Position numbers and translations under genes: made by a program
Notes under the pieces: model-generated
What the model was told of the DNA's origin: nothing
Database searches by the model: none
Seen by the model: the letters and a program-made list of their open reading frames with translations, nothing else
NCBI GenBank assembly: GCA_964602245.1
Contig: CAZRPY010000001.1
Span: forward strand, 88,246-152,245
DNA length: 64,000 nucleotides
Direction: 5' to 3'
DNA from: an uncultured Methanosarcinales archaeon
GTDB taxonomy: Archaea > Nanobdellota > Nanobdellia > Woesearchaeales > JACPIF01
Part shown: positions 1,756 through 44,841 of the stretch, one piece after another
How positions within the stretch are numbered: the first letter of the stretch is position 1
Layout: every line of letters starts with the position of its first letter

Positions 1756-2241
1756 TTAATATTTTTGCCCACAACTTAGAGTATCAGTTCCATTCTTTAC
1801 ACATTCATAAAATTGCTGGACATAAGCTGGAATAGTAAGGTTATTAATAACTATGGCATAAGCTAAAAACCAGAGAATTAGACCAATTGCTACAAGAGTT
1901 AGGATAATGTATAATTGCTTTCTTGTAGCTTGATAGAAATGGAATGCTATTGTTATGCAAATGATTAATGCTAGAGATATCGCCATTCCTATTCTTATGG
2001 AGCCTATAAGCAAAGAGAGCCAATATGTATAAGTAGAAAATATGCCAATGCTAAATATTGCTGAGAAGATAAGTTTCTCTACTGTTTCTAGATCAAAATT
2101 GTGTAGTAGCATGTAAAATGCAAATGATACTAGAGTAAACCAAAGCAGCATTATAACAGATGAGAAGCCAAAGTAGATGAAAAGCAGAACTGCTAGAAAG
2201 ATTGCTATTACTGGTAGTAATATCTTAGTTTCTAGTTTCAA
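1756..2241 (-). CDS. polytopic membrane protein, hypothetical
   Basis: 161 aa, 4 TM helices. Overlaps the upstream 526-aa membrane protein by 17 nt and may be functionally linked to it. Confidence 0.45.
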   Translation of the reverse strand: MKLETKILLPVIAIFLAVLLFIYFGFSSVIMLLWFTLVSFAFYMLLHNFDLETVEKLIFSAIFSIGIFSTYTYWLSLLIGSIRIGMAISLALIICITIAFHFYQATRKQLYIILTLVAIGLILWFLAYAIVINNLTIPAYVQQFYECVKNGTDTLSCGQKY

Positions 2242-3805
2242 GTTTATACACCCTTACAAGATCTTTATCATAGACAAGTGTTGCATTCTTTAAGTTATCT
2301 TGCTCCCATCTCTGTAGTGCATCTATTTCTGCCTTAAACCTTGAATCTTGCTGGCTTAATATTACGAAATCTGAGTAATCCAGCAAGACATAATCATGAT
2401 TACTTGTTATATCGTTTCTGACCCAGTCAATATGTCTTAAGCTTAAAGCTTGTATCCATTTCTTTTTAGTATAAACTACTGTCCCTTTTATCAGTATATC
2501 TGAATCTTCTGGAACATTCTTGTTCAGCCATTCCACTACTTGATATTCAAAAGGGGTTAGCCTTAGAATTCCTGTGTAAGCATTATTTAATGTGGAGTAA
2601 GAATTCTTTGCATTAATGGAGACAGCAATTAATAGGAAAACAGCTACAAGGAAATATTTCGCATATTTTTTAAAGTCTTGATTAAAATTGAATAAAGATG
2701 TTATTCCTAACAAGCCTAGAACTGCAACTGGGTAAAGGATATGTGCTTCTGTTTCAATAAACCTTTCTGCCCTAAACAGGCCAAAAACAAAGTCATGGCT
2801 CATAATGTAGAATGCTATTAGCCAACTAATTAGCAATAAATCTTCAGTTTTCCTTCTAAGTATAAGGAAAAGAATTCCTATTAGAAATAAAGGCAGAAGC
2901 CATGGAAACTTAAAATTTCCTAGGCTAATGAAGCCATGCATTTCATTAAAAGAGTAATAAGAATAAGGAACGCCAACTGGTTTAAGAACACCATACCAAT
3001 GAGGGAGGCTGTTTAAATGCTCAGGGTGGAAGCCAAAACCTGAACTGACAGCTCCAGTATAAATAGTACCTGTGCCAAAAGGAAATACATAAAATGGTAA
3101 AATTAACAGGAATGCAAGTGCTATGAAAATACTTATATCTTTGAGCTTAAGTGGAAGCTTCTTTTTCTTTAGATAAAATAAGACTGTAAAGATTGCTGTG
3201 ATTAAGAATGCTAGAATAATTGATTGAGGATGGATATAGAACTGGGTGGCAAGAAATATTGCTGCTAAATAAAGATAATGGGTTTTTTCATTATCAGTTA
3301 GGTATCTATAGAAGCAGTAAACAGTTAAAGGAACTATTGCAAATGATAATACTTGAGGATATTGGCCCCAGATATACCAAAGAATGTCTCTTATTGAGAA
3401 AATTAACAGGAAACTTGAGAGAAAGGCTGCTAGAGTGCCATATAAGTGCCTTATTAGCAGGAAGCTGGTAAAAACAATGACAAAATTGGAGAGTGCATGG
3501 AATAATAATATTCCTATAGTTCTGTTGGCTGAGAGAATTTGGTAGATGGCTGAGGTTAAATGAAACTGTGGAGGATACCATAGCTTGCCAGCTCCTTCAT
3601 CAACATAGCCGCCTGCAGCAATATAATAAGGCAGATAATAAGTAGCCTTATCTTTCTGGCCCATGTAATCTGCCAGAGTGAAATGTGTGCTGGAATCTAC
3701 ATCACCATATGGAACTAAATTGGTTTTGAAAGGCAGAGTCCAGAAGTAAAATGAAATAAGAAATAATACTACTAGAAGCAATAATTCAATGTTTTTCTTT
3801 TCCAT
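2225..3805 (-). CDS. large polytopic membrane protein, putative GT-C fold glycosyltransferase or polymerase
   Basis: 526 aa, more than 10 TM segments, acidic residues in the first loop (YGDVDSS). No WWDYG AglB motif. Confidence 0.45.
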   Translation of the reverse strand: MEKKNIELLLLVVLFLISFYFWTLPFKTNLVPYGDVDSSTHFTLADYMGQKDKATYYLPYYIAAGGYVDEGAGKLWYPPQFHLTSAIYQILSANRTIGILLFHALSNFVIVFTSFLLIRHLYGTLAAFLSSFLLIFSIRDILWYIWGQYPQVLSFAIVPLTVYCFYRYLTDNEKTHYLYLAAIFLATQFYIHPQSIILAFLITAIFTVLFYLKKKKLPLKLKDISIFIALAFLLILPFYVFPFGTGTIYTGAVSSGFGFHPEHLNSLPHWYGVLKPVGVPYSYYSFNEMHGFISLGNFKFPWLLPLFLIGILFLILRRKTEDLLLISWLIAFYIMSHDFVFGLFRAERFIETEAHILYPVAVLGLLGITSLFNFNQDFKKYAKYFLVAVFLLIAVSINAKNSYSTLNNAYTGILRLTPFEYQVVEWLNKNVPEDSDILIKGTVVYTKKKWIQALSLRHIDWVRNDITSNHDYVLLDYSDFVILSQQDSRFKAEIDALQRWEQDNLKNATLVYDKDLVRVYKLETRN

Positions 3806-4563
3806 TACTCACCTAAATGTATGTATTCACCATGAGTGAAAAAGCCTGCTAATTGTTTGATTCTTGCTATTTTTGGGAATAAATCCCTTTCTAAAGAGAT
3901 AATATTATTATCTATAAATTCAAAGATTTCTGGCTTAAGGATATAGATGCCTGCATTAACCACATGTGTTTCTTTTTTCTCACTTTTTTCTCTAAAGTCT
4001 ATAACCAAATCTCCATCTAGGATGGCTGAGCCGTATTCCGAGGGCTTTTCCCTAGTCATTAGGCCCATTGTCATTATTTTATTGTTTTCATTATGCTTCT
4101 TTATCATCTGTTTAATGTTGAAGTTATTATAAATATCTCCTGACATTGCAATAAAGGCTTTGCCTTTAAGTTTATCTGCAAGTGCTTTTAAAGCCTGTGC
4201 ATTGCCCTTTGCCTCTTTTTCTATAACTCTAAAGTTAACTTTTTCCTTGCCTGCTTCCTGTTCAATCTTTTCAACTAAATTACTGTGCTGTGTTACAAGG
4301 AAGATATTGGTTATGTTATTTGCTGCAAAGAAAGATAATTGATGCCTGATTAATGATTGGCCTTTAAATTCTTTTAATGCTATACTATGGTGTCTTCTGC
4401 TAAGCAATAGAACTGCAGTGTCAACTGCAAACTCACCAATGCCTTTAGATAAGAAATATTCAATAGCCTGAGATCTAGATCTTATTGTGCTGTTATCTAT
4501 TCTTGAATCTACTAAGTCTAATAGCTCTTTATCAATTGAAATTGCTATCTTTAGCTTTTTCAT
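3805..4563 (-). CDS. ribbon-helix-helix DNA-binding domain fused to a sugar-phosphate nucleotidyltransferase-like domain
   Basis: N-terminal RSRSQAIEYFL CopG/RHH signature, then an NTP_transferase-like fold. The Gly-rich loop is degenerate (AVLLLSRR instead of LAGGxGxRL). Confidence 0.6.
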   Translation of the reverse strand: MKKLKIAISIDKELLDLVDSRIDNSTIRSRSQAIEYFLSKGIGEFAVDTAVLLLSRRHHSIALKEFKGQSLIRHQLSFFAANNITNIFLVTQHSNLVEKIEQEAGKEKVNFRVIEKEAKGNAQALKALADKLKGKAFIAMSGDIYNNFNIKQMIKKHNENNKIMTMGLMTREKPSEYGSAILDGDLVIDFREKSEKKETHVVNAGIYILKPEIFEFIDNNIISLERDLFPKIARIKQLAGFFTHGEYIHLGE

Positions 4564-4574
4564 ACCTTTGCATA

Positions 4575-4590
4575 CCCCTATTAGTAGGGG
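4575..4590. promoter_or_regulatory. palindrome cccctattagtagggg immediately upstream of the RHH-NTase start
   Basis: 6-bp arms, 4-nt spacer, 12-27 nt upstream of the start codon at 4563. Confidence 0.3.
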
Positions 4591-4734
4591 ATAGAAGAGG
4601 GTATATAAAGGTTATTCTAAATAAATTCAATAGATTGTACAGAGGATAAAGTTACCTTGATTAATCTATCACTTGAATCATAGTAGTAGTTCTTCTTAAA
4701 GAATCGTACCTAAATCGAAAGATTTATATATCAA

Positions 4735-5031
4735 TTGATATATTATACTATTATGCAAAAGCTAATAAGAAAGAATCCATTTGTAAGATCGCCAACTTTA
4801 GAAACAGTGATTATGGTAGAGAAAGCTATTGATAAATATAGTGGTGAATTTAATAGAACTGAGTTATGGAAAAAACTTCCTAGAAAAGTAATGTGGCAGA
4901 CTTACCTTGTTATTCTTGATTATCTGCAGGATATAAATAAAATCGCAATTGATAGAGAGGGAAAGGTAGGCTATATATGGAATCCAGCACTTGCAAGGAA
5001 GCTTGCCAAAAGAAAGGAGATTAAGGTATGA
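4735..5031 (+). CDS. hypothetical protein, candidate antitoxin partner
   Basis: 4-nt ATGA overlap with the downstream RelE-like ORF. The track start is a TTG; the ATG at 4753 is preceded by a TATA-like box (tttatata, 4723-4730) and is the more likely start. Confidence 0.35.
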   Translation: MIYYTIMQKLIRKNPFVRSPTLETVIMVEKAIDKYSGEFNRTELWKKLPRKVMWQTYLVILDYLQDINKIAIDREGKVGYIWNPALARKLAKRKEIKV

Positions 5032-5354
5032 TTAAGCCTTCTAAAGTGATATTTATCTCTCAGAAATTGGAGAATAGTTTTAATGCTCTACCAAGTAATG
5101 ACTTTCTTAAGAAGTCCATGATCCGGGCAATTAAGGACCTAAAACAAAATGCTTTTGCAGGCGTACATGTTCCAAAAAGGTTAATCCCAAAAGAATACAT
5201 ACAGAAATATGGCATTAATAACCTTTGGAAGTATGATTTGCCTAAAGGATGGCGTCTTTTATATACAGTAACCAGTGAAAATGAAGTTGAACTAATTTCT
5301 GCAATACTTGATTGGTTTGACCATAAGGAATATGAACGGAAATTTAAATATTAA
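5028..5354 (+). CDS. RelE/ParE-family toxin-like protein
   Basis: C-terminal LWKYDLPKGWRLLYTVTSENEVELISAIL...HKEY matches the RelE/YoeB pattern LWKLR..YRvvYrv.de..l.v..v.hRkdvY. Confidence 0.5.
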   Translation: MIKPSKVIFISQKLENSFNALPSNDFLKKSMIRAIKDLKQNAFAGVHVPKRLIPKEYIQKYGINNLWKYDLPKGWRLLYTVTSENEVELISAILDWFDHKEYERKFKY

Positions 5355-5548: not shown

Positions 5549-6793
5549 ATGGCAATCTTTCTGGGTATGGATATTGATACTATGAGGAAGATAGATTATT
5601 GGGTAGGGATACCTGTATGCTTCTTTCTATCAATTATACATAATATTGGCAAGCTATTTAGAGGTAAAACTCGGGTAAAGAGTCCTAGGAAGTTCTTGTT
5701 TATGGAGATATCTGAGATGGGTAGCACTATTATTGCTTATTCTGCAATGTATTATATCAAAAAGAAGTATCTTGGAGCACAGCTTTACTTTCTTCTATTT
5801 AAAAGGAATAAAGAAAGCATAGATATCCTGAAAATAGTGCCTCAGGAGAATGTTATAACAATAAGAGATAGTTCTTTTCCAGCGTTAACTATTGATACGT
5901 TAGCAGCTATCTGGAAGCTTAGGAGAGAGAGGATTGATGTTTCATTCGACTTAGAGCTTTTTTCCAGATATTCTGCAATAATAAATTATTTAATAGGAGC
6001 TAAAGCTAGAGTTGGATTTCATAACTTTACAGCAGAAGGGCTTTACCGAGGAAATTTACAAACGCATGATGTAATGTACAATGCTTATTATCACATGAGC
6101 CAGAATTTTATGGCATTAGCTAAGGCATTAGAAGGGCCTGATGAAATACCTTTTCTAAAACAAGCAATAGATAAGAAAGAGGTTAAAGTGCCCAAGATAA
6201 TTAGCGAGAAAAGGGATAGAGAAGCTATAATCAAAAAAATACAGACATTAAATCCTGCAATCAATGAGAAAAAGAGAATAATATTGTTAAATCCCGGGGC
6301 TAGCAAATTGTTGCCATTAAGAGAATGGCCTCTGCAATACTATAAAGAATTGACAAAAAATCTGCTTGAGGATAAGAATAATTTTGTTGTTATAACTGGG
6401 CTTATAGGTGATAAGGCTTATGCACAGGAGATTTGTAAGTTTGCTGGAGATAAATGCCTTGATTTTACAGGAATGACTAAGACATTAAGAGAGTTAATTG
6501 ATTTGTATAATACTGCTGATGTATTAGTAACAAATGATTCAGGGCCTGCACATTTCTCTGCATTATCTGATATTAGAACAATTGTGTTTTATGGTCCTGA
6601 GACTCCTGTGCTATATGCACCTTTAGGAAGTAATTATACTGCTTTGTACTCAGGATTTGCCTGCTCGCCTTGTGTTTCTGCATATAATCATAGAAAAAGT
6701 CCATGCACTAACAACTTATGTTTGCAAGTGATAAAGCCTGAGGTTGTTCTTAAACTTATAAAGGATCATTTTAATGCAAGAGGAGATAAGTAA
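5549..6793 (+). CDS. glycosyltransferase family 9 (heptosyltransferase-like)
   Basis: LNPGASKLLPLREWP and VTNDSGPAHFSAL motifs typical of GT9. Confidence 0.8.
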   Translation: MAIFLGMDIDTMRKIDYWVGIPVCFFLSIIHNIGKLFRGKTRVKSPRKFLFMEISEMGSTIIAYSAMYYIKKKYLGAQLYFLLFKRNKESIDILKIVPQENVITIRDSSFPALTIDTLAAIWKLRRERIDVSFDLELFSRYSAIINYLIGAKARVGFHNFTAEGLYRGNLQTHDVMYNAYYHMSQNFMALAKALEGPDEIPFLKQAIDKKEVKVPKIISEKRDREAIIKKIQTLNPAINEKKRIILLNPGASKLLPLREWPLQYYKELTKNLLEDKNNFVVITGLIGDKAYAQEICKFAGDKCLDFTGMTKTLRELIDLYNTADVLVTNDSGPAHFSALSDIRTIVFYGPETPVLYAPLGSNYTALYSGFACSPCVSAYNHRKSPCTNNLCLQVIKPEVVLKLIKDHFNARGDK

Positions 6794-7892
6794 GATGCTG
6801 GTAAAGATTCTAGGCAGGATAATTAAGCCTAAAAATAAAAAGATTCCTGGAACAGTAAGGAACATACTTATTATTAGATCTGGTGCTTTAGGAGATGTGT
6901 TAATGACAACTCCGTTAATAGCTGCTATAAGAAAGAAGTACAAAAATGCTAAGATAAGTTATCTTGTAGGAGAGTGGTCTTCTATTGCTTTAAAAAATAA
7001 TCCTAATATTAATGAGATAATTGAATTTGATGATAGAATAATATTTCAAAGAAATATGGGAGAGATAATTAAACTAATTAGAAAAATTAGGGCTTTAATA
7101 TTTGATATTTGTTTTATATTAGATAAATCATATCATTGGAATCTTTTTGCATATCTTGCAAAAATACCATTTAGAATTGGGTTTGAGAGGAATGGAGAGG
7201 GGTTAGCTAATAACTTGGATGTTAAGTTTGATGCTAGTAAGCATGAGATTGAATATTATATGGATATTGCAAGGCTAATTGGAGTAAAAAATGCTAGCAA
7301 CGAGATGAAAATATTTACAACAGCGAAAGATAGGAAAAAGGTAAATAAATTCTTTAGGAAAAATAAGTTAATAAATAAGATTGTAATAGGTATTGCTGCT
7401 GGAGGGGCTGAAAATCCTGGACAGGCTATGTATGAAAAGAGATGGACGGTTGAAAAGTATATTGGGTTAACAAATATCTTGACTGAGAATCATAAAATAA
7501 TTGTGTTGCTGTTTGGGGGCAGGAATGATGCTAGTGTTAATAAGCTGATTAAGGAACAATGCTTGCATAAAAATCAAGTGTTAGATATTTCTAACTATAA
7601 CTTACATGAAGCTTTTGAAATGATGAAAAAATGCAGTTTATTTGTAACGCATGATTCTGGAGCAATGCATATTGCAGGAGCTTCCAAGGCTAAGCTAATT
7701 GCTTTATTTGGGCCAACTCAGGCAGAAAGGTTTGCTCCCAAGAATGCTATTATTATTAAGAGTCCTGCTGAAGGATGCCCTTGCTATGATATGTATGGCG
7801 ATTATAATAGGAAAGTTGCTGAGAAGTGTATGAGGGCTATCAGCGTTGATACTGTTTACCAGGAGATTAAGAAAATTATTAAGAATATTTAG
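6774..7892 (+). CDS. glycosyltransferase family 9
   Basis: IRSGALGDVLMTTPLIAAIRKKYKNAKISYLV and VTHDSGAMHIAGA. Overlaps the upstream gene by 20 nt; an alternative ATG sits at 6795. Confidence 0.8.
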   Translation: MQEEISKMLVKILGRIIKPKNKKIPGTVRNILIIRSGALGDVLMTTPLIAAIRKKYKNAKISYLVGEWSSIALKNNPNINEIIEFDDRIIFQRNMGEIIKLIRKIRALIFDICFILDKSYHWNLFAYLAKIPFRIGFERNGEGLANNLDVKFDASKHEIEYYMDIARLIGVKNASNEMKIFTTAKDRKKVNKFFRKNKLINKIVIGIAAGGAENPGQAMYEKRWTVEKYIGLTNILTENHKIIVLLFGGRNDASVNKLIKEQCLHKNQVLDISNYNLHEAFEMMKKCSLFVTHDSGAMHIAGASKAKLIALFGPTQAERFAPKNAIIIKSPAEGCPCYDMYGDYNRKVAEKCMRAISVDTVYQEIKKIIKNI

Positions 7893-9000
7893 AGGGATTA
7901 AATTGTATCAAGTTAACTGGAAGTATAAACCAATTTTGTTTATTATTGATATTATTGGATATGTAATTTTCTTCCCATATAGGATATTTAAAAGTAAAAT
8001 AAATGAAAATGAGATTAAGAAAATTCTAGTTATAAGGATTGATGAGATTGGGGATGTTTTATTGACAACACCTGTGTTCAGGGCTTTAAGGAGGAGGTTT
8101 CCTAAAGCTGAGATAAATGTGCTAATTAAGAAGGAGACTAAAGAACTATTGGAAAATAATCCAAATGTCGATAGCTTACTTATATGTGAACAGCCATGGC
8201 TTAAAAAGCCTATAAACTTGTTTTACTATTTCTCATTAATTAAGCAGTTAAGGAAAGAGAAATTTGATTTGGCAATAGAGCTGCATCCAGATGCTAGGAA
8301 TATTTTTCTAGGGTTTATTTCTGCAAGATGTGTTATAGGGCATACGTTTAGAGGCTTAGGTGTTTTGTTAGATAAAGTTACAAAGAGTAATCCTAATAAT
8401 GAACATATCATACAGCTTAATCTTGATGTTGCAAGATTAGTTAGAGCTAATGCTAGTGATGAATTAGAGGTGTATTATAGCAAAGAGAATGCGCAAAATG
8501 CTAAGAAGTTAGTTAGAAAATTAGGGAAGAAAATTGTTTGCATTAACCCTGGAACAGGAAGAGAGAGTAAGTTATGGCTGAATGAAAGATGGGCAAGATT
8601 AGCTGATGTCTTAATTGAGAAATATAATGTTCAGGTAATATTTACAGGAAGTAAGGAAGAGGAAGGTTTAATAAAAGACATCCAATTGCAAATGAGAAAT
8701 AAAAAGCAGACAATTAATTTAGCTGGAAAAACTAGTTTGTTGGATTTAGCTGCTTTGCTTAAGAAATGTAGATTGTTGATAGCAAGTGATTCAGGAACTT
8801 TACATATTGCAAAAGCTTTAGAAGTTCCATTAATAGGATTATATGGGGCTGTTAATCCTATGATATGGGGATATAATGATAAAAATGCCAGAAGTGTTTG
8901 CAAGGCTAAAGAGTTTAAAGAAAATAAAGGCAGGGCTATGATGGAGCTAATACAAATAGAGGATGTTTTGAAAGAGGTAAATGAATTATGGGAAAGGTAA
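7846..9000 (+). CDS. glycosyltransferase family 9
   Basis: IRIDEIGDVLLTTPVFRALRRRFPKAEINVLI and IASDSGTLHIAKA. No in-frame ATG before the conserved core; TTG candidates at 7846 and 7903. Confidence 0.75.
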   Translation: MILFTRRLRKLLRIFRGIKLYQVNWKYKPILFIIDIIGYVIFFPYRIFKSKINENEIKKILVIRIDEIGDVLLTTPVFRALRRRFPKAEINVLIKKETKELLENNPNVDSLLICEQPWLKKPINLFYYFSLIKQLRKEKFDLAIELHPDARNIFLGFISARCVIGHTFRGLGVLLDKVTKSNPNNEHIIQLNLDVARLVRANASDELEVYYSKENAQNAKKLVRKLGKKIVCINPGTGRESKLWLNERWARLADVLIEKYNVQVIFTGSKEEEGLIKDIQLQMRNKKQTINLAGKTSLLDLAALLKKCRLLIASDSGTLHIAKALEVPLIGLYGAVNPMIWGYNDKNARSVCKAKEFKENKGRAMMELIQIEDVLKEVNELWER

Positions 9001-9692
9001 AACTTAGCATTATAATGCCTGTATATAATGAAAGGCATACACTAAAACAAATAATAAAAGAAGTTATGCAACTTAATATTAAGGATGTAGAAAAAGAGGT
9101 AATAATAATTGATGATGGCTCAACTGACGGGTCAAGAGAAATATTAAAGAGCTTAGAGAGATTTGGCAAAGGAGATTGTAAAATATTCTACCATAGAAAG
9201 AATCTTGGCAAAGGAACTGCAGTTAATACTGGAATACAGAGATCTTCAGGCGATATAATAATAATACAGGATGCTGACTTAGAATATGATCCAAAAGAAA
9301 TACCTAAACTGCTTCAGCCAATAATAAATAATGAAGTAGAAGTAGTTTATGGCTCTAGATTCTTAAGACATCATAAGCCTCAATACCCTGTCTATTACTT
9401 TGGTAATATAGTCCTAAGCTGGGTAACAACTTTAATCTTTTTTACAAAAATCACAGATATGGAGACTTGCTATAAAGTTTTTAAAAGGGAGGTTATTAAA
9501 GATATTAAATTAAAGGCTAGAGGATTTGATTTAGAACCTGAGATAACAGCAAAAATTCTTAAGAACGGATATAAGATAAAAGAGTTATCTATTTCTTTTA
9601 GACCAAGGAAATTTGAAGAGGGTAAGAAGATAACATGGAAAGATGGACTTATGGCAATATTCTATCTACTAAAATATAGATTCTTTGATTAA
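8988..9692 (+). CDS. GT2 polyprenyl-phosphate sugar synthase (DPM1/GtrB-like)
   Basis: IIMPVYNE...IIIDDGSTDGS...DADLEYDP GT-A DXD architecture; 234 aa soluble form. Confidence 0.85.
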   Translation: MGKVKLSIIMPVYNERHTLKQIIKEVMQLNIKDVEKEVIIIDDGSTDGSREILKSLERFGKGDCKIFYHRKNLGKGTAVNTGIQRSSGDIIIIQDADLEYDPKEIPKLLQPIINNEVEVVYGSRFLRHHKPQYPVYYFGNIVLSWVTTLIFFTKITDMETCYKVFKREVIKDIKLKARGFDLEPEITAKILKNGYKIKELSISFRPRKFEEGKKITWKDGLMAIFYLLKYRFFD

Positions 9693-37524: not shown

Positions 37525-38577
37525 TCACAAATACTTCTCCACCTCTTCCATCACATCCTCATCCGTAATCTTCTCTAGGCTTTCTTTGTAGTTGCCTTTG
37601 GGGTTTGGGTTTGTAGAGTAGAAAGGATATTTAATTAATATTGGGCTTTTCTGGATAACAGAGACTTTCTTGCCATAGGGTTTTGTTCTATTAGGGTTGG
37701 CTGGGCCAAATAAGGCAATTACTGGAACTTGTTTGGCTGCTGCAATATGGCCTAGCCCTGAATCTGTGGAAATAAATAACTTACAATGCCAGATTAAAGC
37801 TGCATTTTGTTTTAAGGTATTGTCTTTAACTATAGTTACTTTATCTCTTGCACTGACATTTTTTAGTATTTCTAATGCTAAGCCTTTCTCATCAGGACCT
37901 TCAAATAATAATATTCTGGATTTGTCATATTTTTCTAAGATTTGATTAATTAGTTCGTTAAATCTTTCTTTGGGCCATCTTCTATAAAGTGCAGTTTTGC
38001 TTGTGCCAGGATGGATGCCTATTAATGCAAATTTGTTTAATGCATTTTTCTTAATAAAATCTAAAGCATATTTCTCATCTTCTTTTGAGGTTTCAAATAT
38101 TAGCTCTCTTTTTTCCTTATCTGTATTAATACCTAAATGTTCTATTAGATTGATGTTATTTTCAACGTCGTGCAATTTCTCTTCTGCAATTATAAGATCG
38201 TTTTGCAAAAAGCTTAGTCTGTTTCCTACTTTATACTTGTGAGTCAATCTTCTTTTAGCTCCTACTAGAAATGCAAATAAATTAAATTCATATCTGTTAG
38301 AGGGCATTGCTGTTATTGAAATATCATATTTTTCTTTTCTTAGCCTCCAAAGTAGCTTTATCCTGTTAAATATGCTGCCATTAAAAACTATTATTTTATC
38401 TATAAATTTACTATTGCTCATACATTCTGCGAAGCTTTTTTCTCTAACTAATAATGTAATTTCTGCTTTTGATAAATTCTTTCTTAATATTCTTAAAGCA
38501 GGTGTAAAAAGGATAGTATTGCCTATGCCTGACAAGCAGAAGATAATTATTTTTAGCTTTAGGTTCTTAAGTTCCAT
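37525..38577 (-). CDS. glycosyltransferase family 9
   Basis: GIGNTILFTPALRILRKNL and STDSGLGHIAAAKQVPVIALFGP motifs. Confidence 0.75.
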   Translation of the reverse strand: MELKNLKLKIIIFCLSGIGNTILFTPALRILRKNLSKAEITLLVREKSFAECMSNSKFIDKIIVFNGSIFNRIKLLWRLRKEKYDISITAMPSNRYEFNLFAFLVGAKRRLTHKYKVGNRLSFLQNDLIIAEEKLHDVENNINLIEHLGINTDKEKRELIFETSKEDEKYALDFIKKNALNKFALIGIHPGTSKTALYRRWPKERFNELINQILEKYDKSRILLFEGPDEKGLALEILKNVSARDKVTIVKDNTLKQNAALIWHCKLFISTDSGLGHIAAAKQVPVIALFGPANPNRTKPYGKKVSVIQKSPILIKYPFYSTNPNPKGNYKESLEKITDEDVMEEVEKYL

Positions 38578-38602: not shown

Positions 38603-39544
38603 TTAAGCTTTACTCATCTCTTGTCTAAAATATTCTATTGTTTTAGCTAAACCTTCTGTAAGCCCTACTTTTGGCTGCCAGTCTAGCCCTTTACTAGATT
38701 TAGCAATGTCTGGACATCTGACATGAGGATCATCTACAGGCAATGGCTTAAATACTATCTTGCTTTTGCTTTTTGTTAATTTAATTATCTCCTGAGAAAA
38801 TTCTAGAACTGTCATTTCATCTGGATTGCCTAAATTTACAGGATCATTTATCTTGGAATTCATTAATTTATAGATTCCATCAATTAAATCTGAGACATAG
38901 CAGAAGCTTCTTGTCTGCTTTCCATCTCCAAAAACTGTTATGTCTTGGTTTCTTAGAGCTTGGTTGATAAAAGCTGGGACTACTCTGCCATCATCTGCTC
39001 GCATTTTTTCTCCGTAAGTATTAAATATTCTAGCGATTTTTGTATCTATCTTATGAATTCTATGATATGCCATTGTAAGTGCTTCTGCAAATCTCTTGGA
39101 TTCATCGTAGCATCCTCTTAACCCAATAGGATTAACATTACCCCAGTAAGTTTCTGACTGTGGGTTTACTAACGGATCACCATAGACTTCTGAGGTTGAT
39201 GCTAGCATGAAAACTGCTTTCTTATCTTTAGCTAAGCCTAATAAGTTGTGAGTGCCTAGAGCTCCTGCTTTTAAAGTTTGGATTGGAATTTTCTGATAAT
39301 CAATAGGAGAGGCTGGAGAGGCGAAATGCAGAACAAAGTTTAACTTGCCTTCAACTGAGACATGCTTGGAAACATCATGGTCGACATAAGAGAATCTCTT
39401 ATGGCCCATTAAATGCTGTATATTTTTTAGGTTACCTGTTATTAAATTGTCCATGCAGATTACTTCATGTCCTGTAGCGAGCAGGAACTCGCATAAATGA
39501 CTGCCAATAAAACCTGCTCCTCCAGTAATAAGTATCCTTGTCAT
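38603..39544 (-). CDS. UDP-glucuronate decarboxylase (UDP-xylose synthase)
   Basis: [22 protein letters not shown]...[10 protein letters not shown], 313 aa, UXS-type extended SDR. Confidence 0.85.
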
Positions 39545-44721: not shown

Positions 44722-44841
44722 TCGTGGACGGTCATAGTGGCATGGTTCCACCTGATCCCATTCCGAACTCAGAAGTTAAACATGCCAACGTCTTGGATTG
44801 TACTGTACTTTAGTACGGGAAGTCCAAGAAGCTGTCCCACT
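44722..44841 (+). rRNA. 5S ribosomal RNA (archaeal type)
   Basis: ggtcatagtggc...ccgaactcagaagttaaac...ggattgtactgtactttagtacgggaag aligns to archaeal 5S. The terminal helix GUGGACGG pairs with CUGUCCCAC. Followed by T-runs. Confidence 0.85.

Follow-up and report, generated by a model that had tools for sequence, protein, structure and literature searches.

The open reading frame (ORF) at positions 3805 to 4563 of the window, the whole 64,000-nucleotide (64-kb) stretch of archaeal contig CAZRPY010000001.1 analyzed here, probably encodes an autoregulated repressor in which a pseudoenzyme domain senses a sugar nucleotide. Its product fuses a ribbon-helix-helix (RHH) domain to a nucleotidyltransferase (NT) fold, an architecture referred to below as RHH-NT. 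We hold with good confidence, from sequence comparison, that this protein is a DNA-binding regulator with a non-catalytic NT domain. The evidence leans slightly toward a regulator that responds to a ligand, and ADP-heptose is our tentative candidate for that ligand. The coding features on which this reading depends are as follows.

3805 to 4563, minus strand: ORF encoding an RHH domain followed by an NT-type fold; 252 residues, ATG start, stop codon at 3805-3807.
4432 to 4563, minus strand: RHH domain, residues 1-44, from an hhalign comparison with NikR, RHH_1 matches in the family and an AlphaFold2 (AF2) model.
3808 to 4419, minus strand: NT-fold domain, residues 49-252, resembling GDP-mannose/heptose pyrophosphorylases, from PF00483, PDB sequence matches, AF2 and Foldseek.
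4369 to 4416, minus strand: degenerate catalytic loop, A50-E65 (AVLLLSRRHHSIALKE), in place of GGxGxRLxPLTxxxPKPL, from alignments and the start of the Pfam match.
3817 to 3819, minus strand: codon of His249, which occupies the site of the second metal-binding Asp (W-x-D-x-G motif), from the family alignment.

An earlier note on this DNA had assigned an RHH signature, RSRSQAIEYFL, to the N-terminus. The motif is present (residues 28-38), and profiles and models taken at the family level support a NikR-like RHH at this end of the protein. RHH_1 was matched by 21 of 24 family N-termini (best E 4.2e-5), and the NikR model TIGR02793 matched residues 5-47 of the window protein with an E-value of 0.0014. 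When a profile of residues 1-48 was compared with E. coli NikR using hhalign, residues 4-44 aligned with NikR residues 2-42 (85.7% probability, E 5.4e-6), pairing K5, A7 and S9 with R3, T5 and T7 of NikR. The predicted elements are a beta-strand (K5-I-A-I-S-I-D11), helix A (12-20), a turn with R28-S-R-S-Q32 and helix B (30-40); K3, K5, A7, S9 and R28-x-R30-S-Q-A are invariant across the family. Residues 1-48 modeled alone with AF2 (predicted local distance difference test score, pLDDT, 82.5) displayed RHH topology, being extended over residues 1-11 and helical over 12-20 and 30-40, and the top Foldseek neighbors of this model were apo-NikR and SvtR, an RHH protein of an archaeal virus.

For the remainder of the protein, the earlier note had claimed a sugar-phosphate nucleotidyltransferase fold, and this assignment holds. 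Pfam NTP_transferase (PF00483) matched residues 62-221 with an E-value of 8.9e-22 (78.3 bits against a cut-off of 21.2). The match is limited to profile positions 24-192, leaving the glycine-rich-loop portion of the profile without a partner. Among NCBIfam models and PDB sequences, the best matches were the mannose-1-phosphate guanylyltransferases human GMPPB and Arabidopsis VTC1, archaeal GlmU-like enzymes and HddC, which is a heptose-1-phosphate guanylyltransferase, all far under equivalog cut-offs; in the comparison with HddC and mannose-1-phosphate guanylyltransferase equivalogs, NF052502 scored 80.9 bits versus 440 and NF049965 (HddC) 33.9 versus 300. The full-length AF2 model, built from a 30-sequence alignment, had pLDDT values >90 over most of residues 50-170 and 200-240, and a Foldseek search with it recovered VTC1, GMPPB, GMPPA and HddC at a template modeling score of ~0.73.

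We aligned 43 sequences, comprising canonical nucleotidyltransferases, RHH-fused relatives with intact motifs and members of the family. The canonical loop is indeed replaced by AVLLLSRRHHSIALKE (residues 50-65), as the note had it. In the window protein LLLSRRHHSIA stands where others have GGxGxRLxPxTxxxPKxL, a deletion of 9 residues relative to the intact relatives, and most of the family (the main clade) reads LLLKGEHQxxA at this position. The loop has neither the catalytic Arg nor the PK-motif Lys. The first metal-binding Asp, D143 of the G-D motif, is retained, and the Asp of W-x-D-x-G is an invariant His in the family (H249). The chain ends 3 residues later; intact relatives run on as a helix, E-x-Y-E-K-A-I-K-E-W-K, and this C-terminal helix is absent from the window protein. 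In RmlA, GlmU and GMPP, the loop Arg and the PK Lys bind the NTP phosphates and the leaving pyrophosphate, and two Asp residues hold metal ions. Since three of these four catalytic residues have been lost, nucleotidyl transfer by the window protein is very unlikely. In the family, the nucleotide-sugar pocket is still lined by motifs that vary little or not at all (G120-N-A, S-G-D143, Y177-G178, E192-K193, N203-A-G205-x-Y and E225-x-D-L-F-P). Their retention argues for a role in ligand binding, and we infer that the C-terminal domain is a pseudoenzyme with a predicted ligand-binding function.

Full-length relatives of ~250 residues with 54-60% identity occur in hundreds of Woese-, Pace- and Nanoarchaeota assemblies, where they are annotated merely as 'nucleotidyltransferase family protein' or 'hypothetical'. 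When representatives clustered at 50% identity were searched exhaustively, 50 clusters matched at E<=1e-30, and 709 did so at E<=1e-10. Nearly all of the best 150 have an RHH, only about a dozen keep an intact GGxGx[RK]L plus PK loop, and the remainder have loops at many stages of decay. An intact-loop RHH-NT paralog (~278 residues, with a GGxGxRL...PKPL loop and an FDTGT motif) is conserved and widespread in the same archaea. This paralog looks like an enzyme equipped with an RHH and is likely the ancestor of the degenerate family; it is also a candidate 'trigger enzyme'. Two unrelated genomes have it in one operon with a phosphoglucomutase/phosphomannomutase (PGM/PMM) gene.

L094, 7001 to 9486: intact-loop paralog with PGM/PMM gene.
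L096, 7001 to 9177: intact-loop paralog with PGM/PMM gene.

The upstream regions of this paralog also bear CATAC/GTATA repeats. A search of the full-text literature for an architecture of RHH with nucleotidyltransferase or pyrophosphorylase, or for heptose in Woesearchaeota/DPANN, found nothing relevant.

The genes that surround the family are linked to heptose metabolism. We sampled 81 non-redundant loci, namely one per GTDB species together with L003, L006 and the window. A heptose-7-phosphate kinase gene was present on the opposite strand within 5 kb in 58 of the 62 loci having >3 kb of upstream sequence. The divergent operon of L003 encodes GmhA, ADP-glyceromanno-heptose 6-epimerase (HldD), RfaE domain I (kinase) and RfaE domain II (adenylyltransferase), all above NCBIfam trusted cut-offs, with GmhB falling just under its cut-off. 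On these matches, the operon is a complete ADP-L-glycero-beta-D-manno-heptose pathway. RfaE domain II adenylyltransferase is encoded in 54 of the 81 loci. Of 69 loci, 53 have a GT9 heptosyltransferase gene downstream of the regulator, with DUF2304, GT2 and STT3/AglB typically coming next. The linkage of pathway, GT9 and AglB genes suggests heptose-containing surface glycans.

A palindrome, AGTATGAA-N3-TTCATACT, marks both the regulator and the heptose-operon promoters. Its consensus is tAGTATGAAttnTTCATACt, with the core AGTATGA-N5-TCATACT. When 1.04 Mb of locus DNA was searched for GTATGA-N5-TCATAC with <=1 mismatch, 84 occurrences were found, compared with 2 for an N4 spacer and 0 for N6. 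Seventy-three of the 84 lie within 300 nt upstream of a regulator gene. Nine of the other 11 are positioned at the heptose-operon promoter, 0 to ~145 nt upstream of the first gene start (six of them 13-32 nt from the start of an SIS gene); these nine belong to loci that have another gene inserted between regulator and operon, or a contig end close by. On the heptose-operon side, the TFB recognition element (BRE)/TATA box comes first, followed by the palindrome, 4 nt and the ATG, so the site fills the interval from TATA box to start; the start of this operon is probably leaderless. The regulator's own promoter takes two forms, carrying either the same palindrome or TATAAAtAGTAATACTttttACTACTtattCATACC directly before the ATG. 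The latter consists of three units with a 10-bp period and reads GTATGA-N15-TCATAC in some loci. A second site occupies the TATA-to-ATG interval of the regulator gene.

These half-sites, AGTATGA and TCATACT, are identical in every letter to those upstream of E. coli nikA, where the genome reads GTATGA-N16-TCATAC (L093 603-630), the established NikR operator; the spacing is N5 or N15 here versus N16 there. The occurrence of a NikR-like RHH beside NikR-type half-sites at both divergent promoters provides strong circumstantial support for the proposal that the protein binds them. An intertwined RHH dimer that places a two-stranded sheet in the major groove and binds specific sequences would be expected of such a protein, and the promoter repeats with NikR-type half-sites support this indirectly. 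By position, the protein would repress both divergent transcription units.

The window protein belongs to a subclade whose other members are 83% (L007/L088), 91% (L087), 93% (L100, 60 residues available), 76% (L008) and 73% (L092) identical to it; L100 was the one new close relative returned by a metagenome scan for subclade loci. Members share the loop S[RK]RHH, a 526-residue membrane-protein partner and a divergent operon of three GT9 genes and a GT2 gene that replaces the biosynthesis operon. Three elements at the promoter of the window gene are relevant here.

4602 to 4609, minus strand: TTTATATA, probable archaeal TATA box of the RHH-NT gene; CCTTTAWATA in all subclade loci, function inferred.
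4561 to 4576, minus strand: tandem direct repeat GGTATGcaaaGGTATG (GGTATG-N4-GGTATG) with a 10-bp period, the probable autoregulatory operator over the start codon.
4575 to 4590, strand not applicable: palindrome CCCCTA-ctaa-TAGGGG; present, not conserved and probably not an operator.

Across six subclade promoters, CCTTTATATA-N22-RGGGTATGCAAAGGTATG is conserved, with RGGGTATGCAAAGGTATG ending in the start codon, and the stretch from the TATA box to the RGGGTATGCAAAGGTATG block is variable. The tandem GGTATG-N4-GGTATG is the sole exact match to that pattern in the 64-kb window. Of its two units, the proximal one (GGTATGAA) holds the start codon and is a common form of the family half-site, in which 19 of 83 sites have G at that position. 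We consider this tandem a probable autoregulatory site. Versions of the family operator with an N13-17 spacer were absent from the window.

The earlier note had instead placed autoregulation at the palindrome CCCCTA-N4-TAGGGG. It exists as described, between the TATA box and the ATG, and overlaps the tandem repeat by 2 nt only. We rejected it as the operator: its left arm is not conserved in L087, L088, L092, L008 or L100 (73-93% protein identity). That arm falls in the variable stretch, and the palindrome is missing in all relatives, even those with 91% and 93% identity. It is specific to this lineage and not clearly above chance; a perfect inverted repeat with 6-nt arms is present in 42% of 171-bp windows of this sequence, with GC-rich-arm repeats being rarer (0.037 per 171 bp).

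Two further observations concern the subclade promoters. In the window, positions 4564-4577 and 4599-4612 form a 14-nt imperfect inverted repeat (86% complementary, arms 21 nt apart) in which one arm, ACCTTTATATACCC, includes the TATA box and the other, GGGTATGCAAAGGT, is the conserved block; a similar relation is seen in other subclade promoters. In L092, a ~50-nt insertion with a 14-codon upstream ORF (2150-2201) separates the promoter block (GGGGGTATGCAAAAGTATG) from the annotated regulator start.

Taken together, we propose that the protein would act as a one-component transcription regulator, most likely a repressor. The NikR-like RHH would dimerize and read AGTATGA-type half-sites located between the TATA box and the transcription start, with one RHH dimer per half-site. 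In the window, binding to the candidate site GGTATG-N4-GGTATG over its own start codon would autoregulate the operon that RHH-NT heads, which also includes genes for the 526-residue membrane protein, a small membrane protein and a methyltransferase. In most relatives, a site of this type, AGTATGAA-N3-TTCATACT, also spans the promoter of the divergent ADP-heptose operon; for the main-clade ortholog, AGTATGAAnnnTTCATACT is the candidate binding site. The C-terminal pseudoenzyme would descend from an RHH-fused sugar-1-phosphate nucleotidyltransferase that lost its phosphate-binding/catalytic loop and one metal ligand and kept its pocket motifs. The NT domains would link two RHH dimers in a higher oligomer, much like the ACT domain of NikR, and a nucleotide sugar held in the dead active site could tune DNA affinity. 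The likeliest such ligand would be the pathway product, ADP-heptose, acting as a co-repressor. The earlier note had suggested a transcription factor with a sugar-nucleotide-sensing domain that is probably non-catalytic. Architecture, alignment, synteny and promoter repeats all agree with that description; its suggestion of UDP-sugars finds no support, and context points instead to heptose, as ADP-heptose. More broadly, it is possible, and we put it forward with caution, that DPANN archaea widely use a hitherto undescribed family of pseudoenzyme transcription factors of this type, in which a duplicated RHH-NT enzyme lost catalysis and became a feedback repressor of ADP-heptose synthesis and heptosylation (GT9/AglB), acting through NikR-type half-sites with the product as co-repressor.

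Several observations weigh against this proposal. For the window protein alone, RHH_1 scored 15.6-17.8 bits, below the Pfam cut-off of 20.5, and the RHH part of the full-length AF2 monomer was of low confidence, as is commonly the case when an obligate intertwined dimer is modeled as a monomer. The model of residues 1-48 gave weak Foldseek E-values (0.4-2), as expected at that length. With the L003 proteins as tblastn queries, the 64-kb window returned GT9, GT2 and generic epimerases only; of heptose biosynthesis, neither GmhA nor the kinase, phosphatase or adenylyltransferase was found. GTATGA-N5-TCATAC with <=2 mismatches had one match in the window, in a coding region, against a shuffle mean of 2.5. 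Since the window lacks both the main-clade palindrome and the heptose biosynthesis genes, the strongest evidence comes from orthologs of 54-60% identity. The window, L092 and L008 showed no shared motif at their GT9 promoters. The GGTATG block sits in the probable 5' leader, and a Shine-Dalgarno-like GRGG, an initiator element or the start codon itself may explain part of its conservation. Association is what ties the palindromes to the RHH-NT protein rather than to another factor. Genomic context is the whole basis for naming the ligand, and the fold is nearest to GDP-sugar enzymes, whereas ADP-heptose is made by an enzyme of cytidylyltransferase-like type. The chain of argument as a whole, from DNA binding to ligand, is drawn from sequence.

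One alternative is that the NT domain serves as an oligomerization scaffold only, making the protein a constitutive or partner-controlled RHH repressor that responds to no small molecule. The loss of the catalytic/phosphate-binding loop fits this idea, as does the lack of ligand evidence, and NT-fold enzymes such as RmlA and GMPP are commonly dimers or tetramers. However, the GNA, SGD, YG, EK and NAG motifs and E225 are kept across the family though useless for oligomerization, and the tight linkage to one sugar-nucleotide pathway suggests metabolite feedback. We regard a pure scaffold as unlikely.

A second alternative inverts the logic, with the protein acting as an activator, or as a repressor released by a pathway intermediate such as sedoheptulose-7-phosphate or heptose-1-phosphate. 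Sequence does not fix the sign of a ligand effect, and divergent promoter pairs can be controlled in opposite directions. Nevertheless, the sites fill the TATA-to-start interval at both promoters, a position typical of archaeal repressors, and end-product co-repression is the usual logic of biosynthetic operons, as for MetJ and NikR. We give this inverted scheme little credence.

It could also be argued that the N-terminus is not a DNA-binding RHH or has another target, that the palindromes serve another factor and that the protein has a non-transcriptional role in heptose/glycan metabolism as a regulatory subunit like GMPPA, a catalytically dead NT-fold protein that serves as an allosteric subunit. 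Besides the sub-threshold RHH_1 score, a search of the N-terminal profile against PDB sequences gave insignificant matches only, and PDB 7d72 (GMPPA) is among both the sequence and the fold matches. Against this stand the hhalign alignment to NikR over the whole RHH, the RHH_1 matches of other family members, NikR and SvtR as the best structural neighbors, the invariance of the predicted DNA-facing K5, A7 and S9, and the presence of half-sites equal to those of NikR at the gene's own promoter in most loci; we find such a role quite improbable. Finally, a bifunctional 'trigger enzyme' like PutA or BirA, both an active sugar-1-phosphate nucleotidyltransferase (e.g. for heptose-1-phosphate) and a repressor, is very improbable: RHH-NT paralogs with an intact loop do exist and look catalytic, and some heptose operons (e.g. 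L006) are without a recognizable adenylyltransferase gene in the fetched stretch, but the window protein lacks the GxGxR loop, the PK Lys and the second metal Asp and ends right after its last strand, and most main-clade operons already encode RfaE domain II.

The proposed ligand-responsive repressor shares features with several known systems. E. coli NikR (b3481) is similar in the alignment of its RHH over the whole length, in being the best structural neighbor (as apo-NikR), in its GTATGA/TCATAC half-sites and in the general plan of an RHH head with a C-terminal ligand-binding/oligomerization domain and autoregulated repression, the last being predicted here. In contrast, the C-terminal domain of the window protein has an NT (Rossmann-like GT-A) fold rather than an ACT-like nickel domain, its sites are spaced by N5 (plus N15/tandem) rather than N16, its strand carries K/A/S rather than R/T/T, and its predicted ligand is a sugar nucleotide rather than a metal. 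NikR models matched residues 4-47 only, and the protein is no member of NikR, since it has no ACT-like tetramerization domain with a high-affinity His/Cys nickel site. With the PF00483 enzymes GMPP, HddC and RmlA, the protein has in common the fold and the order of motifs (GTA-like, GD, YG, EKP-like, NAGxY, ExDxFP); unlike them, it lacks the GGxGxRL...PK loop and the C-terminal helix, has His for Asp in D-x-G, carries an added RHH and is predicted to be non-catalytic.

GMPPA, which is among the best fold matches, eIF2B gamma/epsilon and the regulatory subunits of ADP-glucose pyrophosphorylase likewise reuse a dead NT fold as a sensor or regulator tied to the product nucleotide sugar, as predicted here. 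Their effect is protein-protein allostery on an enzyme or translation factor, whereas the domain in the window protein is fused to a DNA-binding domain. The trigger enzymes PutA, BirA and NadR resemble it in joining a DNA-binding domain (an RHH in PutA) to a metabolic enzyme fold that regulates the cognate pathway. They differ in that the enzyme part of the window protein appears dead, which would make it a dedicated regulator and not a moonlighting enzyme; the intact-loop paralog, by analogy, may be of exactly the PutA/BirA/NadR kind. As for Omega, Arc, CopG and MetJ-type regulators, arrays of 7-10-bp units, about one helical turn apart and in direct or inverted orientation, overlap the promoter. 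Those regulators are small proteins, and MetJ binds S-adenosylmethionine without a separate ligand domain, the others binding no small ligand.

To our knowledge, almost nothing is known of gene regulation in DPANN archaea, and we know of no regulator of ADP-heptose synthesis described in archaea. If the proposal is true, archaeal heptose metabolism would have its first predicted regulator, and the passage from trigger enzyme to dedicated regulator would have a clear example. The novelty would lie in the NT fold as the sensor of an RHH one-component regulator; this fold would join the sensor domains used by RHH regulators, and the family would document the conversion of an enzyme fold into a metabolite sensor within one lineage. 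The system is also compact and open to testing, with a 250-residue protein, a 19-bp candidate operator whose consensus is clear, a defined class of candidate ligands and, for comparison, a natural paralog in which the enzyme is intact. A full set of ADP-heptose pathway genes is present in many DPANN genomes, in linkage with genes for GT9 heptosyltransferases and for the oligosaccharyltransferase AglB.

The genes that flank the regulator in the window are the following.

2225 to 3805, minus strand: gene for the 526-residue polytopic membrane protein, downstream of RHH-NT; its start overlaps the RHH-NT stop (TAATG), and it is the partner throughout the subclade.
5549 to 9692, plus strand: divergent operon of three GT9 heptosyltransferase genes and a GT2 gene; directly divergent from RHH-NT in L100, L008 and L092.
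4753 to 5031 and 5028 to 5354, plus strand: two small overlapping genes between the regulator and the GT9 operon; found in this genome only, L100, L008 and L092 being without them.

A precomputed weak match to PMT_2 is on record for the 526-residue membrane protein, and dedicated scans gave no Pfam, NCBIfam or PDB sequence match. The two small inserted genes are not part of the regulator system. The first of the divergent ORFs probably starts at ATG 4753 rather than TTG 4735. Weak matches to the ParE/YoeB toxins (E 0.03-0.05) were found for the second, and the two may be a toxin-antitoxin pair; the same two gene clusters are neighbors in both L058 and L074. At 4726-4743, a perfect 18-bp palindrome (ATATATCAATTGATATAT) overlaps the TATA box of the inserted pair, and the sequence that precedes the ATG of this pair, TATACTATT-ATG, is similar to the main-clade heptose promoter at its proximal end, TCATACTATT-ATG.

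The heptose operons themselves vary at their first gene: 26 loci have a GmhA of the SIS type, and 31 (~31/81), or about half of the operons, have a small sugar isomerase of the cupin type. The latter is a Cupin_2 protein of 118-138 residues, similar to lyxose isomerase and mannose-6-phosphate isomerase, and it may be a non-orthologous replacement of phosphoheptose isomerase. Two examples are given here.

L021, 7526 to 7882, minus strand: cupin-type first gene.
L015, 7454 to 7870, minus strand: cupin-type first gene.

Five loci (L019, L024, L027, L035 and L066) have a gene of ~281 codons (cluster 20) inserted upstream of the regulator and oriented like it; the palindrome remains at the divergent promoter region common to the cluster 20 gene and the heptose operon. 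In L006, a gene for a ~2360-residue protein with Hint/intein-splicing domains (1-2641) adjoins the heptose operon.

Elsewhere in the window, there are four GT9 genes, three of them within 5549-9000 (plus strand) and the fourth at 37525-38577 (minus strand), where it adjoins an SDR epimerase gene at 38603-39544. A 5S rRNA gene (79.4 bits) lies at 44724-44840 on the plus strand, and tRNA genes were not found in the window.

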